Virus record (IMG/VR): IMGVR_UViG_3300011626_000001
Location: 1-42,973 of that record
Source of the DNA: a virus
Lineage: Duplodnaviria; Heunggongvirae; Uroviricota; Caudoviricetes
Strand: one strand, 5' to 3'
DNA: 42,973 nucleotides
The translations under genes were made by a program, and so were the position numbers. Under the pieces are notes generated by a model. It was given only the letters and a program-made list of their open reading frames with translations, was not told the DNA's origin and did not search any database. Below are positions 29,808-40,913 of this stretch, piece after piece (position 1 is the first letter of the stretch; each line of letters opens with the position of its first letter).

Positions 29808-30524
29808 TCATGACCCTCTCCCTTTCCTGACCAGTGCTTTCAGCCGGGCAACGTTGTCCAGGGCCTTTTCACTGGCTGTAGGCATGTAGAGCTTTTCCAG
29901 CTGCGCGCGAGGTGGGGGAATTTCTTCGCCAGACTCGATGCGCGACGCCATTTTGCGAAGCTCGGCGCGGCATTTTGCTCGCAGCTCAGGCTCGGTGAGG
30001 TTGTTGGCGCGCATGGTGCTGTACAGGCCGGTGACCATCCAGTATGCCGCGTTGCTTTCCCACGGATACGCCTCAGGGCTGTCTATCAGACCGCGGCGGG
30101 CGGAGTACTTCATCACCATGTCATACAGACCGTCTTCGTCCGGCAGACCAGCGGAGCGGAGTTCGCCCTGCTTGCACCACCCGATAAATTGTCCAGGCGA
30201 TGGCCAGAACGGTGAGGTACTGGCGCGGGCGTGCTTCATGCCGGCCGACAGCTGCTGCTTCGTGCTGATGTCGTTTTCGGCGAAGGCGGCGATCCACTGA
30301 CGCTTGGCTGAGGCTTCGTCGCGCGGGTCTTTAAGCGCGGTGCTGACCGATGCGGGAAAAACCTGCTTCAGGCTCATGAACAGCATGTCGACCAGACGCT
30401 CAACGGTTTCGTTGACGCCACGATCTACCGGCTGAGGGCCGTCACCAGCCATGCGGGCCAGCGCGCTGCTGTCGCGGTTGTTTATTGCGGCTACGAGATT
30501 TCTCATATGAAATTTTCCTCCCAC
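29808..30524 (-). CDS. P: Replication protein P (helicase loader, lambda P-like)
   Basis: PFWPSPGQFIGWCKQ and YPWESNAAYWMVTGLYSTMRANNLTEPELRAKC closely match lambda P as I recall it. Confidence 0.85.
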   Translation of the reverse strand: MGGKFHMRNLVAAINNRDSSALARMAGDGPQPVDRGVNETVERLVDMLFMSLKQVFPASVSTALKDPRDEASAKRQWIAAFAENDISTKQQLSAGMKHARASTSPFWPSPGQFIGWCKQGELRSAGLPDEDGLYDMVMKYSARRGLIDSPEAYPWESNAAYWMVTGLYSTMRANNLTEPELRAKCRAELRKMASRIESGEEIPPPRAQLEKLYMPTASEKALDNVARLKALVRKGRGS

Positions 30525-31426
30525 TCTCTGCGGTCGTTCCAGTGTGGAACCTGCTGCTGTGAACTGGATTGCGCGTTGCGAGCCGGCTGGCTCATCTGCG
30601 CTTTAAGGGTCGCCCACTGCTTTCGCAGCTTCGAAGGGCTGAGGATGTTTGTCTGCCAAAACTGATTGCCGTTCGCCCAGGTGAAGACTTCGCAGATTTC
30701 CCGGTGGCTGACCTTCAGGGAATCGCGCATCAGGCGAATGTCGTTTGCCCAGGCGGGCCAGTTGGGTTGCTGGGCTGTCGGGGTGATCACCTGAACCCGG
30801 CTGAATATCCACTGAGCGGCCAGAAGGTCGTCAGCGGTTCCCCACTTATCGCCCTTCGGTGAATGAACCGCTGCATCAGGCCGGACAACAGGAAGACTTT
30901 TCAGACGCTCGTCAGAGGATTCGCCAGAATTCTCGGACGTATGTTTAATGTCTTTTTTGTCTTTTGTAATAGTGTCTTTTGTGTGTCCCTGTTTTGGTGA
31001 CAACCCTGTCACCGTTTTGGTGACACTTTTTGTCACTGTTTTGGTGACAGTGACACCGTCTTGGTGACACTCTGGAATTTGCCACTCAGCGAGGTTCTTA
31101 TTAGGCCCGATTAGCATGCCTTCCCGGACCAAAACCCCCATCTGAATAAGCTCGTTTTTCGCCTTGTTCACCTTTTGCCGCGGCAGTCTGGTGAGCTGGC
31201 TTATCTGGCTGTCAGCAATGCGATCCATCTTTTTGTTGAAGCCGTATGTTTTCCGGCAAACAGCATGCGCAACCTTCGCCTGGTTCCTGGTCAGGTTGGC
31301 CCCTATCAGCTCTTCGTACAGCTCGTTTGCCAGACGCGTATATCCGTCGTCTGTGTCTGCCACACGTTGCTCCACGGCCCGGAGTTCGGGCCTGATTGGT
31401 GTTACATTGTCATAAGCCAGATTCAT
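30503..31426 (-). CDS. O: Replication initiator O-like protein containing the origin iterons
   Basis: N-terminal LTRNQAKVAHAVCRKTYGFNKK resembles the O N-terminal domain; the central repeat VTVTKTVTKSVTKTVT is encoded by DNA iterons. Confidence 0.8.
   Translation of the reverse strand: MNLAYDNVTPIRPELRAVEQRVADTDDGYTRLANELYEELIGANLTRNQAKVAHAVCRKTYGFNKKMDRIADSQISQLTRLPRQKVNKAKNELIQMGVLVREGMLIGPNKNLAEWQIPECHQDGVTVTKTVTKSVTKTVTGLSPKQGHTKDTITKDKKDIKHTSENSGESSDERLKSLPVVRPDAAVHSPKGDKWGTADDLLAAQWIFSRVQVITPTAQQPNWPAWANDIRLMRDSLKVSHREICEVFTWANGNQFWQTNILSPSKLRKQWATLKAQMSQPARNAQSSSQQQVPHWNDRREWEENFI
30989..31075. repeat. Origin of replication: four or more iterons (core TTGGTGACA) followed on the minus strand by an AT-rich tract
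   Basis: Direct and inverted copies of GTTTTGGTGACA read within the O coding region; adjacent TGTCTTTT repeats. Confidence 0.7.
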
Positions 31427-32249
31427 TGCCGCCCCCGCCTGCCGGTATGCCAGCGCGATAATCAGCGATGATCCGCTTTATCTCTTCAGTCGTGCCATAG
31501 GAAAGAATCAGCTGGTCAAAACCTCCATCGCGGTCGAACTCCGCATCGACCAGCAGCTCTACCAGGCGTCGCGCTTTAGCCGCGCTGAACTGAGGAATAG
31601 CTGCGCTACGGGACAGTTTCTTTTTCCCAGCCGCTTTGGCCTTCTCCATCTGCTCGCGCGCTACGCTGTCAGCTTTAGGCCCGTGCTCACGAGAAAGAGC
31701 CACTGCAGTCGTCGGAGCAACCTCACCAGCTTTCACCATCGCGATCAGCTCATCGCCGCAGGCAAGCAGCTGCAGGTGATGATCAACATCCCCAACAGAG
31801 CGTTTCACCTTGCTGGCGATTTCTGAGGTCGACCAACCCTGATTAGCCAGACGCTGATATGCTGCAGCGCGCTCCAGCGAGGTGAGCGGTTTACCCTGAC
31901 TGCTGGTAACCATGAACGCGATGCGATCGGCTTCGGTACCGGAAAAGTCTTTGCACTCTAGGCGCGCAATCTCATGGCCTGCTTTGGTCGCCAGCAGCGC
32001 ACCGTGATAGCGGTGGTGGCCGTCGATGACTTTGATGCCCTGCTCAGTTACCTGAACAGCCAGAGGCGGAACAAACTCGCCGGCGATGAACGCGTTGCGA
32101 AATTCTTCGACGTGCGCCTGGTCGATTTCACGGACGTTGTAGCCCGGTTCGATGTACAGCTCTGCCAGTGGCACCAGAAACGTTTTCTTGACCGTTGTTT
32201 CGGTGCCGTTTTTGTCCTTGGCCTTGTAATGCAGTGATAAACTACTCAT
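31410..32249 (-). CDS. ParB/Srx-like N-terminal-domain protein (279 aa)
   Basis: Motif VIDGHHRYHGA typical of the ParB N-terminal (nuclease/CTPase) fold; inserted between cII and O. Confidence 0.55.
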   Translation of the reverse strand: MSSLSLHYKAKDKNGTETTVKKTFLVPLAELYIEPGYNVREIDQAHVEEFRNAFIAGEFVPPLAVQVTEQGIKVIDGHHRYHGALLATKAGHEIARLECKDFSGTEADRIAFMVTSSQGKPLTSLERAAAYQRLANQGWSTSEIASKVKRSVGDVDHHLQLLACGDELIAMVKAGEVAPTTAVALSREHGPKADSVAREQMEKAKAAGKKKLSRSAAIPQFSAAKARRLVELLVDAEFDRDGGFDQLILSYGTTEEIKRIIADYRAGIPAGGGGNESGL

Positions 32250-32283
32250 AATTACTCCTGTGAATTGATCCAGTCATTTCGCA

Positions 32284-32574
32284 TCAGGCTTCGAAGCTGT
32301 TAGCGCAGCTCGGAGCCTTTTCTTTTCCCAGAATCAGGGCCACTTCCTTCGCTACAGCTTTAGCCAGCTGCGCAGCATCGTCATCAACGATCCCGTATTC
32401 GAGGATGTCTATAGCCATGCTCATCTGGCGGAAAAAGTTCTTCTTCATGCGGCTGACCTGGTATTCAGCGATCCCCAGTTTTTCTGCGAATGTTTTCTGG
32501 CTGATAGATGCCAGCTTGTTCAGCAAGGCCGATTCGATGCGGCGCGCGTTCTTGCTTTGAGTTGCATGTTCCAT
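32284..32574 (-). CDS. cII: Transcriptional activator CII
   Basis: RIESALLNKLA and GIVDDDAAQLAKAVA match lambda CII; position after cro and nutR. Confidence 0.85.
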   Translation of the reverse strand: MEHATQSKNARRIESALLNKLASISQKTFAEKLGIAEYQVSRMKKNFFRQMSMAIDILEYGIVDDDAAQLAKAVAKEVALILGKEKAPSCANSFEA

Positions 32575-32904: not shown

Positions 32905-33004
32905 ATAGCCTCCTTGACAAACTTTCTTGTATTTTAAATACAAATTACTTTGTTTGTCAATTACAGCTTTTCTTGTGAACATCTCTTTTTTGATGAGGTG
33001 TTAA
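32905..33004. promoter_or_regulatory. OR operator / PR-PRM divergent promoter region
   Basis: Inverted repeats TTGACAAAC...GTTTGTCAA and TTGTATTTtAAATACAA between cro and cI starts. Confidence 0.6.
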
Positions 33005-33646
33005 ATGACAATTGCGGCAAGGGTGCTTTCAAAAAGGACTGAGCTGGGTTTGACTCAGACAGAGCTAGCGGAAAAGGCCGGCACAACGCAGCAGGCGATT
33101 GTCCAGCTTGAGAGCGGTAAAACTAAAAGACCAAGATATCTGCCTGAGCTGGCTAAGGCGTTAAATTGCGACATCCAATGGCTTCTTGATGGATCAGGGG
33201 CAACCTTAGACAGCAATGTGTCTAACCCTAGGGACTACAAGCCGACTGCGCGCTACCCCGTTTTAAGCAAGGTTCAGGCTGGCGCATGGGATGAAGCCTG
33301 TGAACCCTATACGATTAAGGATGTCGATATGTGGCTTGAATCTGACGCACATACGCAAGGAGAGGCTTTCTGGTTGCAGGTGGAAGGCGATTCGATGACT
33401 GCCCCGATTGGCCTCAGTATTCCGGCAGGTACGTTCGTACTGTTCGACACCGGCCGTGAGGCGGTCAATGGAAGCCTGGTCGTGGCAAAGCTTACTGACG
33501 ACAATGAAGCCACATTCAAGAAGCTCATTATCGACGGCAGTCAAAAGTATCTTAAGGGCCTGAACCCTCAATGGCCGATGGTCCCGGTTAACGGGAATTG
33601 CAAGGTTCTTGGCGTGGCGATCGAGACGAAGATGAAGCTCGTTTAA
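33005..33646 (+). CDS. cI: CI-type prophage repressor (HTH + LexA-like S24 autopeptidase domain)
   Basis: N-terminal HTH; C-terminal GDSM serine motif and downstream Lys ([10 protein letters not shown]). Confidence 0.85.
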
Positions 33647-33966: not shown

Positions 33967-34962
33967 ATGGAACAACATGACGTTTTTGTGTACACAGGTG
34001 ATATCCACCGTGATGGTTATCTCGATCTTACTAATGCCATAAAAAAACGCAAAAAAGCTCAAGGACTCAGCACTGAGGTTACTTTTTGTGTCGCCACTTA
34101 TGGCGGAGATCCAAATGCAGGCTATCGTATAGGAAGAGCGCTTCAACATAACTATGAGAAAGTGAATCTTTTAGTAGTGGGCCCCTGTAAGAGTGCCGGG
34201 ACTTTGATAGCGATTGCAGCTGATAAGCTTATCATTGGAGACATGGGTGAGCTTGGCCCCCTTGATATACAGCTTAAAAAAAATGACGAAATTGGCGAGA
34301 TGAGTTCAGGCCTGGTCATAATGACGGCCTTAGATGCGTTAAAAGATCGCTCTATTTCGACGTTCAATTCTCATCTGGTTAAGATAAGATACGAAAACCA
34401 GATAAGTACGAAGATGTCAGCTGACATTGCTGCGAAGTTAACTGAGGCGTTAGTTGCTCCCATGGCTGCTCAGATAGATCCAATTAAACTTGGAGAGCAT
34501 CAACGAGCTATGAGCATTGCCATAACCTATGGGCAGCGACTCAGTGACAAATCTAAGTGTTTGAAGGATGGAGCTTTATTTAAATTAATTGCCTCTTATC
34601 CTTCACATGGTTTTGTGATAGATCGCAAAGAGGCTCGCGAACTTTTTCACCATGTTGAAAGTCCAACTGGTTACGCTGAAGCACTTTACGAGATTTTTTA
34701 TCAAAAAATTCACGAGGGTGAAATTCAACCTTACGGTAAACCGAAGGTGCTCGATTTCACTATCGATCCTGAAACAACTGAGAATAATGGAGATGCCAAT
34801 GCACAATCACCCGGAGATGGAGGTACTGAACAAGATGATTCAGGACCAAATCCAGGAGAGTCAAGATCTGGCAAAGCGAGCAGAGCAAAATCTAAACGAT
34901 CTGAAGCGTCAACTGGAGCCCTACCAGTTCAGCAGCCCAATGACATACCGCCTCCAGAGTGA
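33967..34962 (+). CDS. ClpP/S49-fold (SDH-type) serine peptidase-like protein with charged low-complexity C-terminal tail (331 aa)
   Basis: Segment GPCKSAGTLIAIAADKLIIGDMGELGPLDIQ resembles the Ser-containing core of ClpP/SppA-fold peptidases; no signal peptide; AT-rich gene. Confidence 0.55.
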   Translation: MEQHDVFVYTGDIHRDGYLDLTNAIKKRKKAQGLSTEVTFCVATYGGDPNAGYRIGRALQHNYEKVNLLVVGPCKSAGTLIAIAADKLIIGDMGELGPLDIQLKKNDEIGEMSSGLVIMTALDALKDRSISTFNSHLVKIRYENQISTKMSADIAAKLTEALVAPMAAQIDPIKLGEHQRAMSIAITYGQRLSDKSKCLKDGALFKLIASYPSHGFVIDRKEARELFHHVESPTGYAEALYEIFYQKIHEGEIQPYGKPKVLDFTIDPETTENNGDANAQSPGDGGTEQDDSGPNPGESRSGKASRAKSKRSEASTGALPVQQPNDIPPPE

Positions 34963-34984
34963 TCTCTCACCATTTTAAGTAAAG

Positions 34985-35008
34985 CCCGGCCACCGCGCCG
35001 GGTTTTTT
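34985..35008 (+). terminator. Rho-independent terminator (CCCGGC-CACCGC-GCCGGG + T6) ending the cI cargo operon
   Basis: Hairpin and T-run read directly, 23 nt after the peptidase-like stop. Confidence 0.6.
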
Positions 35009-35144
35009 ATACCCGCCACACCAATAGCCCGCCATTGAGCTGGCTTTTTCATGCTGCTCTAAAGTTATCAGTTATGCTGCCGTTAACCTCTTTGCTCTGG
35101 AAAACAGTAGTACCAATAACGACAATATGAAATCAAGCCGGTTG

Positions 35145-35168
35145 GCCCGCTATGCGCGGGCTTTTTTT
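35145..35168 (+). terminator. Terminator hairpin GCCCGC-TATGC-GCGGGC + T7
   Basis: Read directly; member of a repeated hairpin family. Confidence 0.5.
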
Positions 35169-35312
35169 CTTTCAATACATAAACTAACGTTATCCTGACG
35201 AGTAAAATTACTACGCTATATTTCACAGCAACGTAGCGGCAGTAGCCTATGCTTTGAAAGCACATTATTTGCTGTGTGCGATGGCTTTCCCCATTGGAAT
35301 TTGTGTCTTCTT

Positions 35313-35336
35313 GCCCGCCATAGAGCGGGCTTTTTT
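35313..35336 (+). terminator. Terminator hairpin GCCCGC-CATAGA-GCGGGC + T6
   Basis: Read directly; member of a repeated hairpin family. Confidence 0.5.
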
Positions 35337-35500
35337 AAGCCAACTCCCGCTGCCCAGAACAATCCTAACTTCATGACTTGTAGGACCATTCCCACATCGC
35401 AAGAACTCACACACTCCTAACCTTTAATGGCTACACGCATACAGGATGTTGCGCGTTAGCTGTACGAGATTTGCAGGTTAACCCTGTGCTGAATCACTTT

Positions 35501-35524
35501 GCCCGCCACTGAGCGGGCTTTTTT
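35501..35524 (+). terminator. Terminator hairpin GCCCGC-CACTGA-GCGGGC + T6
   Basis: Read directly; member of a repeated hairpin family. Confidence 0.5.
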
Positions 35525-35559
35525 GTGCCTGCAGATCCCACTTCGTAAAAATAAATCAC

Positions 35560-39514: not shown

Positions 39515-39685
39515 ATGAGTGGACATTGCGATAACTGCGGTTGCCGTAAAGTTTCCGGCTACTGCACTAACTGCCAGGAAGAAGCCTATATCGTTTTCGA
39601 GCAGGCACCAGAAATGGAGTTCAGCGAAGAGTTTATGCAAAAGGCATGGGATCAGCAGAAGGAGGTTTCACGTGAAAATCACTGA
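39515..39685 (+). CDS. Small Cys-rich (CxxC...CxxC) protein (56 aa)
   Basis: AGGAGA SD; four Cys in zinc-ribbon-like spacing. Confidence 0.4.
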   Translation: MSGHCDNCGCRKVSGYCTNCQEEAYIVFEQAPEMEFSEEFMQKAWDQQKEVSRENH

Positions 39686-40121: not shown

Positions 40122-40333
40122 TGGCTAAGCAAAACCGCTATATCTACCATTACTGCGCAGCGCAAGGTAATGCGACTGTCTCGGGTATCGCTCAGCTGAC
40201 TTTCCGAATTGTCTCTCAGGAAGACCTGAACAGACTGAAGCAGTTTGTCTCTGACGATCTCAGCTTTCAGGCTGTCGCCATTGTTTCTCTCTCGTATTTA
40301 GGCCGAGAGAATGAGGATGCAGCCCATGCGTGA
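40118..40333 (+). CDS. Hypothetical protein (71 aa)
   Basis: ORF in track, coupled to neighbours. Confidence 0.35.
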   Translation: MMAKQNRYIYHYCAAQGNATVSGIAQLTFRIVSQEDLNRLKQFVSDDLSFQAVAIVSLSYLGRENEDAAHA

Positions 40334-40913
40334 ACGCCCAATCCTCTTAAACGCCGACATGGTGCGCAATACCAACACCAACGCCCGAATCTACCCAGGC
40401 AAAGGTTTAGACCAAAATTCACCTGAGCATTTGGCGCGCCGACTTGCAAATGGGTGCTGCATCAACGAACAAACCGAATGCTGGGAGTGGCAGCGGCACA
40501 CCAACAATGCTGGTTACGGGAAACTAACCATCAATGGCCGTGGAGTTTATGCCCATCGACTGGCCTATCAGTTAACTAAAGGAGATTTACCACAAGGCAT
40601 GGAGGTTTTGCACTCCTGCGACAATCCGGCGTGCATTAATCCAGCACACCTGGCTGCCGGAACTCACTCGCAAAACATGAAAGATTGCAGCGCCAAAGGT
40701 CGCGCCAAAATGCCAACCGTTATCGTGCGCGGAGAAAGAAATGGCGCTGCTAAGTTGCGCGAGGTGGATGTTCGTTCTATCAAGCGCCTTTTGGAAAAGG
40801 GTTGGACGCAAAGGGATATCGCTGAGCGGTTCGGCATATCGCAAAGTCAGGTCAGCCATATAAAGCTTGGCAGGGCTTGGGTCATCGAGTTTAAGCGCGT
40901 GGAGGTGGAATGA
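40311..40913 (+). CDS. HNH endonuclease with C-terminal HTH
   Basis: CWEW...GYG...AHRLAY...HSCDNPACINPAHL is a classic HNH_3 / AP2-type signature; C-terminal HTH (TQRDIAERFGISQSQVSHI). Confidence 0.75.
   Translation: MRMQPMRERPILLNADMVRNTNTNARIYPGKGLDQNSPEHLARRLANGCCINEQTECWEWQRHTNNAGYGKLTINGRGVYAHRLAYQLTKGDLPQGMEVLHSCDNPACINPAHLAAGTHSQNMKDCSAKGRAKMPTVIVRGERNGAAKLREVDVRSIKRLLEKGWTQRDIAERFGISQSQVSHIKLGRAWVIEFKRVEVE

Follow-up and report, generated by a model that had tools for sequence, protein, structure and literature searches.

The window analysed here, the whole 42,973 nucleotides (nt) of IMG/VR virus record IMGVR_UViG_3300011626_000001, is overall that of a lambdoid (pro)phage, a lambda-like prophage of Pantoea running from its tail genes to its early-left genes. 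At 31410–32249, on the minus strand, lies an open reading frame (ORF) of 279 amino acids that an earlier note, made from the sequence without database searches, had singled out for a DGHHR-type ParB/Srx N-terminal signature and for its place between cII and the replication initiator gene O. Both observations held: the signature lies within the peptide VIDGHHRYHGALLA, which spans residues 74–87, and the flanking genes match PF05269 and PF04492, all on the minus strand. The product of this ORF is almost certainly a full-length, ParA-less ("orphan") member of the ParB family with a three-domain layout. An identical copy of the gene is present on a 42.9-kb contig of assembly GCA_031986405.1, and among named relatives the nearest, at 97% identity, is a protein of Pantoea septica. 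No integrase gene or tRNA was found in the window, which does not include the integrase end, and whether it is integrated is inferred from its relatives.

The ParB-like gene in the early-right operon

A cro-like helix-turn-helix (HTH) gene heads the minus-strand series, which continues with cII, the ParB-like gene, O and P, and a LexA-type cI repressor gene (33005–33646) is divergent from this operon (Table 1). A repeat search located the OR operator repeats at 32917–32965, and the pR-like promoter among them is predicted to drive the series from cro through cII, the ParB-like gene and O to P. The overlap between the stop codon of the ParB-like gene and the start codon of O is 17 nt in the window versus 1–4 nt at other loci, and these overlapping codons indicate that the ParB-like gene is translationally coupled to O. 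On its upstream side, alignment showed the 34-nt region between cII and the ParB-like gene, together with the start codon, to be homologous to the cII-O intergenic region of lambda; lambda has ACTGGATCTATCAACAGGAGTCATTATG followed by O, the window has ACTGGATCAATTCACAGGAGTAATTATG followed by the ParB-like gene, and the similarity stops at the ATG. Among 70 loci compared, the most conserved run of DNA, and the only conserved one of at least 11 nt, was ACAGGAGTAATTATG, comprising the ribosome-binding site (RBS) and the ATG, which we attribute to the oop/pO/RBS cassette that sits there. By this junction the ParB-like gene appears to have been inserted exactly at the start of O, capturing the oop/pO/RBS cassette that precedes O in lambda, and its gene order marks it as a fixed member of the pR early-right operon.

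The oop-like antisense unit lies on the opposite strand. Its pO-like promoter (TTGTAA-17-CATAAT, 32224–32252, from a promoter scan) overlaps codons 1–9 of the ParB-like gene, and the predicted RNA of ~70 nt (about 32259–32327) contains two hairpins, one at the 5' end and the other, a terminator hairpin, over the 3' end of cII, as well as a U-tract. When sequences were folded singly the same two-hairpin fold was found in five other loci, including lambda oop, with differing stem sequences; an Rfam search of the window returned nothing at the gathering thresholds, the oop-like unit included.

The ParB-like ORF is a real gene under strong purifying selection and not a chance ORF. Over 13 divergent loci its ratio of nonsynonymous to synonymous substitution (dN/dS) was 0.11 overall (dS 1.4–2.0, saturated), with 0.09 for the N-terminal domain, 0.09 for the HTH domain and 0.29 for the C-terminal domain.

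Table 1. Features of the ParB-like gene, its product and the neighboring early-right operon (coordinates of the window; aa, amino acids).
Feature	Position	Strand	Basis or remarks
ParB-like gene, member of PHROG 1033	31410..32249	-	ATG start, 279 aa + stop; PHROG E = 8.5e-85, AlphaFold2 pLDDT 93.6, dN/dS 0.11
Shine-Dalgarno AGGAG of the ParB-like gene	32255..32259	-	Lies in the invariant ACAGGAGTAATTATG, 5 nt upstream of the ATG
cII activator	32284..32574	-	PF05269, E = 1.5e-24
Replication initiator O	30503..31426	-	PF04492, E = 1.6e-36
Origin iterons inside O	30984-31071		Four copies of TGTCACnGTTTTGGTGACA
Helicase loader P	29808..30524	-	PF06992, E = 1.2e-64
pR-like promoter (TTGACA-18-TAAAAT) among the OR operators	32931..32960	-	Promoter scan, 11/12 matches
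Overlap, 3' end of ParB-like gene and start of O	31410..31426	-	17 nt, from ORF coordinates
oop-like antisense unit (predicted)	32224..32327	+	Promoter scan; fold z = -5.6; alignment to lambda cII-O intergenic region
N-terminal ParB/Srx-fold domain, aa 1-118	31896..32249	-	Foldseek, alignments to Spo0J/ParB
N38-V-R40, counterpart of canonical Q-x-R phosphate motif	32130..32138	-	HMMER alignment
D76-G77-H78-H79-R80, box II P-motif (GxxR)	32010..32024	-	Aligned to GERR of Spo0J/ParB
T115-S-S-Q-G119, box III position (canonical ENLQR)	31893..31907	-	Alignments to 1vz0 and 6sdk; consensus TSSQG
ParB-type HTH DNA-binding domain, aa 119-210	31620..31895	-	PF17762
Recognition helix K149-L162	31764-31805	-	Within HTH domain
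Basic linker K205-A-A-G-K-K-K211	31617..31637	-	A204, G208 and K209 invariant in family alignment
Small C-terminal domain, aa 211-279	31413..31619	-	AlphaFold2 pLDDT >90 up to aa 267

Family and domain architecture

The protein falls in PHROG 1033, which is named "ParB-like partition protein" (E = 8.5e-85, residues 3–247 against profile positions 17–260 of 334), and matched the Pfam HTH_ParB model PF17762 (1.7e-7; 31.7 bits versus a cut-off of 22.6), which was matched by all of 57 diverse family members. A single-sequence phmmer search of the PDB identified Spo0J of Thermus thermophilus (1vz0; 2.8e-9) as well as the ParB proteins of Bacillus subtilis and Myxococcus xanthus, and a family profile compared with structures reached Spo0J (2.5e-24), M. 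xanthus ParB (6e-22), Noc (7e-19) and KorB (1e-12), with P1 ParB marginal. The AlphaFold2 model, built on 57 homologs, had a pLDDT score (predicted local distance difference test) of 93.6 and a predicted template-modeling (pTM) score of 0.84, and consists of an N-terminal domain up to residue ~118, a helical HTH part (~119–206) and a helix-strand-strand-helix C-terminal domain (~214–267). Foldseek matched this model to ParB, Noc and KorB chains of the PDB at probability 1.0, the best target-normalised TM-scores (0.71–0.72) being to the open forms 1vz0 and 6t1f, and the top matches among viral models were uncharacterised phage "ParB/Spo0J HTH" proteins. The structural match to sulfiredoxin was limited to the N-terminal domain (~85–115 residues). 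The earlier description of a ParB/Srx N-terminal domain was thus right as to the signature and incomplete as to the protein, which has the full ParB layout of N-terminal, HTH and C-terminal domains; the profile comparison that the note had proposed, separating ParB, Srx and DndB families, placed it with ParB, Noc and KorB, with no Srx or DndB/DGQHR profile match.

The best-conserved part of the protein is the N-terminal domain, which contains a conserved peptide at residues 1–23, and the least conserved is the C-terminal domain, presumed from the model to serve in dimerisation. At the basic linker between the HTH and C-terminal domains, the string GKKKLT is invariant among the long forms of the protein described below.

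Nucleotide pocket and recognition helix

ParB has recently been recognised as the founding CTP (cytidine triphosphate)-dependent molecular switch. In our alignments Q37 and R39 of B. subtilis ParB correspond to N38 and R40 (the motif being QPR in both B. subtilis and M. xanthus ParB), and N38 and G77 do not vary among the 57 diverse members (identities down to ~27%), in which R40 and R80 reach at least 90% conservation. Box II varies across the family as DG[HQE][HCR]R or EGH[RC]RR. Relative to B. subtilis ParB, E78, E111 and N112 are replaced, by H78, T115 and S116 respectively, and mutants of B. subtilis and Caulobacter ParB have shown the replaced positions to be required for CTP hydrolysis and Mg2+ binding. 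By alignment, the phosphate-contacting arginines of the pocket are kept and the canonical CTP-hydrolysis residues replaced. A similar pattern has been described for orphan ParBs (Kaljevic et al., PNAS 2025, PMC12704722), in which box III is often absent and GxxR nearly invariable, mutation of the GxxR arginine abolishes nucleoside triphosphate (NTP) binding, and binding of CTP, ATP or GTP is not predictable from the sequence.

The recognition helix reads KRSVGDVDHHLQLL, as against GKxRSxVANxLRLL in Spo0J, and R150, S151 and D154 do not change in members as distant as 43% identity; as its residues differ from those of Spo0J, specificity for canonical parS is unlikely.

Distribution, synteny and modularity

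Scans of genomes and viral contigs identified 108 close loci (62–98% identity) in Pantoea, Erwinia, Hafnia, Atlantibacter, Klebsiella, Rahnella, Lonsdalea, Izhakiella and other genera, with a cII homolog directly upstream in 90 and an O-type initiator gene directly downstream in 77, most of the others being truncated where the contig stops. Three copies, each on a contig of its own, are present in one strain. The same order of cI/cro-cII-ParB-like-O-P is found, together with integrase and excisionase genes, in an isolated temperate phage, Erwinia vB_EhrS_59 (Eho59; 77% identity), and in E. coli the gene is found in 13 of 5426 complete genomes, all chromosomal, a rarity that is probably why it has gone unstudied.

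The family extends well beyond these loci, homolog counts being 743 at E-values of 1e-5 or less and 3362 for cluster representatives. Distant relatives (25–48% identity) occur in 322 GenBank phage records, and virulent carriers include several Klebsiella phages and the siphoviruses 9NA and Skate (a Salmonella phage), the relative in Skate lying in a small operon between structural genes. For three members sampled at 30–37% identity, the location was an early, replication or nin region of a phage, with parA in no case adjacent. Other Pantoea prophages encode long forms of 432–446 residues (loci L019–L029, e.g., L023:6001-7308; P0121, P0122 and P0125), which carry a conserved C-terminal extension of ~150–165 residues that is absent from the window, with the motif SGxxxxACxxAxFGxKxxYxxxESKYAHxWAADS. 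This extension had no Pfam or PHROG match, a homolog search for it gave only two fragments, and its AlphaFold2 model was of low confidence (pLDDT 58). The gene order at the long-form loci is initiator, a Ren/PerC-like gene, the long ParB-like gene and rusA, and no P- or DnaB/DnaC-type loader gene was found between the initiator gene and rusA.

The ParB-like protein is uniform amid variable neighbors. Among 69 unique loci, single-linkage grouping at 60% identity gave seven types of cII, seven types of the O N-terminal region and a single type of ParB-like protein, the mean identities being 44% for cII, 46% for the O N-terminal region and 78% for the ParB-like protein (86% in its N-terminal domain, 80% in the HTH domain and 60% in the C-terminal domain). 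The pairwise identities of the ParB-like protein gave Mantel correlations of 0.41 with the O C-terminal domain, 0.26 with the O N-terminal region and 0.17 with cII, permutation being the sole correction for phylogeny, and these values hint that the gene is inherited together with that half of the replication module which interacts with P.

Searches for a binding site and a partition partner

Searches of the whole window, the surroundings of the gene included, for repeats and for palindromes, whether perfect or imperfect, found just the iterons in O, the operators at OR and OL, and terminator hairpins, and scans for canonical parS, KorB OB and Noc NBS sites gave matches at chance level. Synonymous-site constraint was not seen within the gene, identity being flat (0.27–0.67, mean 0.49), and the palindromes that the window shares with vB_EhrS_59 or Skate were only LexA boxes and artefacts of coding homology. 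One candidate, TTTCACGTGAAA at 39666–39677, is a perfect 12-bp palindrome equal to the canonical parS core, and was rejected as a chance occurrence: it lies over an AAGGAGG ribosome-binding site and the GTG start codon of an ORF in the early-left region, neither vB_EhrS_59 nor any of 120 other loci has it, and parS-core hits overall numbered four versus about 2.8 expected.

The partner ParA is likewise missing, as the earlier note had reported along with the lack of an obvious parS. No ParA-like ORF was found in the window, and the ParA-binding motif (L/F/I)G(K/R)G(L/F/I) occurs neither in the window protein nor, over residues 1–60, in any of the 270 members collected. A ParA-like gene is present at only one of ~115 loci, where it is not adjacent to the ParB-like gene: in a prophage of Klebsiella sp. 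Ap-873, a ParA-like ATPase (CbiA/AAA_31, 347 residues; L034:2204-3247, minus strand) is encoded beside cI, and the prophage also has the cII-ParB-like-O arrangement.

Possible functions

As the best overall explanation we tentatively propose an NTP-switched DNA-binding clamp that is made with O and P and acts early in lytic growth; of its parts, nucleotide-gated DNA binding is reasonably probable, and a role linked specifically to replication is possible but doubtful. The protein would be a clamp of the ParB type, a dimer that binds DNA under the control of a nucleotide switch, with NTP bound through N38/R40 and G77/R80, and nucleotide turnover would probably be slow or take another route because the canonical catalytic residues are replaced (a glutamate by H78, and the glutamate and asparagine of box III by T115 and S116). 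It would be synthesised together with O and P straight after infection or induction, would act on DNA during early lytic development, and might organise or mark replicating phage DNA or modulate replication-linked events; prophage partition forms no part of this proposal. Cross-talk between ParB and replication is known in other replicons, and this precedent, along with the constant coupling of the ParB-like gene to the initiator gene, in the short and the long architecture alike, is what points to the replication-linked role. Two suggestions of the earlier note keep their place, a CTP-dependent DNA clamp being plausible in architecture and modulation of replication fitting the conserved coupling to O. 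As the ParB-like protein is uniform across phages of differing immunity and origin specificity, and much better conserved than its specificity-determining neighbors (cII and the O N-terminal region), its target would be generic or conserved in the host and not a phage-specific centromere; this suggests a target common to many phages or hosts.

Several results weigh against this proposal. At the level of profiles, the window protein had no match to the Pfam ParB N-terminal model PF02195 at E-values of 0.01 or less (a model reached by only eight of the 57 diverse members), scored 38.3 bits (1.1e-9) against NCBIfam TIGR00180 (parB_part), under the cut-off of 58.45, and in its C-terminal domain had no profile-level similarity to the ParB dimerisation domain. 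A kept GxxR is no guarantee of NTP binding, since 17 of 28 purified ParB-fold proteins bound no NTP in vitro (PMC12704722). A loading site was not found despite the palindrome, repeat, conservation and motif searches, and the binding site may be non-canonical, degenerate, distant or host-borne. The gene is also missing from most lambdoid phages, so that O/P-type replication as such does not need it, and the link to replication is a weak one, drawn from gene position and a weak correlation.

Among the alternatives, a transcriptional regulator of the KorB/VirB kind, loading at a site and repressing or de-repressing phage or host promoters (e.g., by countering H-NS silencing or by tuning early versus late expression), seems unlikely, although ParB-fold regulators are established (KorB, PMC11790492; VirB, PMC10770331), KorB is among the structural and profile matches, 11 of the 57 members weakly match the KorB domain PF08535, and GenBank names of homologs include "transcriptional regulator" and "repressor KorB domain". 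A KorA-like partner is not evident, no OB-like sites or conserved operator-like palindrome common to related phages were found, and a phage-specific regulator ought to vary along with the mosaic genes it targets, yet one type of protein is found across seven cII and seven O types. That same independence from the phage specificity modules speaks for an anti-defence or host-takeover factor, which would coat or mark DNA, or bind a conserved host protein or site, and so block a defence or host process. The gene is an accessory early gene of temperate and virulent phages in many genera, and a survey of orphan ParBs has suggested anti-defence roles for phage ParB-fold proteins (PMC12704722); the strong purifying selection and the fixed place beside O are, however, less typical of arms-race genes, and a search of defence profiles, which gave only a chance-level PADLOC match, led us to reject membership in a defence system. 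We regard this possibility, too, as an improbable one.

The earlier note had also raised a nuclease, and in favor of a ParB-like nuclease acting against host or competitor DNA there is the historical "ParB-like nuclease domain" label on homologs; the histidine pair of DGHHR could in principle bind metal, and three of the 57 members weakly match GmrSD_N. The analysis gave this idea no support and we consider it very unlikely, as the protein has no nuclease domain and no defence or nuclease profile match above chance, its architecture is that of the DNA-binding ParB, Noc and KorB type, and GmrSD_N is the NTPase module of GmrSD enzymes and not their nuclease (PMC12373910). Least credible of all is a genuine partition protein of an extrachromosomal (plasmid) prophage, for which there are the source names ("partition protein") and the one related prophage with a ParA-like ATPase beside cI. 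The loci on long contigs are all chromosomal (megabase contigs and complete chromosomes), the isolated relative vB_EhrS_59 carries integrase and excisionase genes, homologs occur in virulent phages, where partition would be meaningless, and neither a ParA-binding motif (270 members), nor parA (in the window or at ~114 of 115 loci), nor parS was found. On these comparisons the reading as plasmid-prophage partition is largely refuted, and the name "partition protein" is misleading as an annotation and should not be read as a sign that a carrier prophage is plasmid-like.

A broader extension of the clamp proposal, which we offer as speculation and think rather improbable, is that these proteins form a distinct clade of ParB-fold nucleotide switches, for the most part not covered by surveys, in which the P-motif is GH(H/R/C)R and box III is lost. 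They would act in lytic phage development as a replication-coupled DNA clamp or organiser common to temperate lambdoid phages and virulent siphoviruses, and would load without a classical parS, candidate places being the O-bound origin, replication intermediates or a host-conserved site. If so, it would represent a ParB function unrelated to partition. The wider question is the role of the many ParA-less ParB relatives on mobile elements, for which this family offers a clean and genetically tractable case: a single conserved protein wedged into one of the best-understood operons (lambda pR, cro-cII-O-P), and present in at least one isolated phage. Finding its target and the effect of its loss would reveal one non-partition use of the ParB clamp.

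Other features of the window

Two LexA (SOS) boxes were identified, TACTGTATATAAACACAGTA (958–977), just upstream of a minus-strand gene region that includes a UmuD-like ORF (393–734), and ATACTGTTTATGCAAACAGTAT (42453–42474), just upstream of an 87-residue ORF (42487–42750, PHROG 17759); vB_EhrS_59 has similar LexA boxes, one of them before its UmuD-like gene. In the "rex" slot just downstream of cI (33967–34962, plus strand) lies a gene for a 331-residue ClpP/SDH-type serine-protease-like protein (PHROG 21683, E = 1e-158; Pfam matches under the cut-off; no PADLOC match), possibly a lysogen-expressed moron or an exclusion function. Between this gene downstream of cI and the OL operators, at 34983–35529 on the plus strand, there are about five similar GC-rich elements of hairpin plus T-tract (GCCCGCC-N5-GCGGGC-TTTTTT), mostly 169–188 nt apart, with a further copy at 307–337; these are either a terminator cluster of unusual redundancy or repeats of a small element. 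The early-left region encodes an HNH endonuclease with a C-terminal HTH (40311–40913, plus strand; PHROGs 1872, 6254 and 59), which may be a homing endonuclease.

Comparison with known systems

Of the features of a canonical ParB, the GxxR fold domain and the HTH are present in the window protein, and the ParA motif, parA and box III are not, no recognisable parS was found, and the curated cut-offs are not reached. Chromosomal ParB/Spo0J proteins (1vz0; B. subtilis 6sdk, M. xanthus 7bnk, C. crescentus 6t1f) share its domain order and are its best N-terminal and HTH matches, but here the gene is a phage early gene whose product has no ParA partner or ParA motif and for which no parS was found, with GHHR in place of GERR, TSSQG in place of ENLQR, other recognition-helix residues, and a C-terminal domain unrelated at the profile level. 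KorB of RK2 (8qa8, 8qa9; PMC11790492) and Noc (7nfu, 7ol9) are strong fold matches, likewise of ParA-independent ParB families, and put the clamp to a non-partition purpose. Differing from KorB, the window protein has no KorA-like partner, no OB sites and no SH3-like KorB C-terminal domain; it has no PF08535 match, the scan for OB (TTTAGCSGCTAAA) gave one match versus 0.94 expected, and a KorA-like neighbor was not evident. It differs from Noc in its TIGR04285 score (28.5 bits versus a cut-off of 315), in having no Noc-type N-terminal membrane helix by inspection, and in its Enterobacterales hosts, and its score against the NCBIfam model of PRTRC-ParB was far below the cut-off. Sulfiredoxin has a catalytic cysteine motif, GCHR, where this protein has GHHR, and lacks the additional HTH and C-terminal domains. 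For DndB/DGQHR there was no NCBIfam match at E-values of 0.1 or less and a marginal PF14072 match in one of the 57 members, and neither the gene nor those related loci that were inspected had dndCDE or PAPS (3'-phosphoadenosine 5'-phosphosulfate)-reductase genes as neighbors.

The closest counterpart is the orphan class of ParB-CTPase-fold proteins (PMC12704722). By its location on a mobile element, its ParB similarity, and its lack of a parAB operon and of a ParA motif, the ParB-like protein would be classed as an orphan ParB, and it resembles that class in being encoded outside a parAB operon on a prophage, in having no ParA-binding motif, and in a kept GxxR with a divergent box III. It differs in that the lambdoid clade largely escapes the survey profiles (PF02195/TIGR00180), in having the canonical three-domain layout and not a fusion, and in its lambdoid pR place, which was not described there. 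The family is itself common and already annotated: the protein is a clear member of PHROG 1033 ("ParB-like partition protein") and of the NCBI "ParB/RepB/Spo0J family partition protein", names whose partition element is contradicted by the evidence above. A functional study of the family was not found in the literature searched, and ParB-like genes in lambdoid early-right operons are already in print (Genome Res 2025, PMC12315714), very probably the same gene class, in a paper without analysis of family, motifs, junctions or conservation. What our comparison adds is the logic of the junctions, with the RBS/pO cassette of O captured and translation coupled to O, the conservation of a single type of protein amid mosaic neighbors, the evidence against partition, and the placement of these proteins in a clade that surveys based on PF02195 and TIGR00180 would largely miss.

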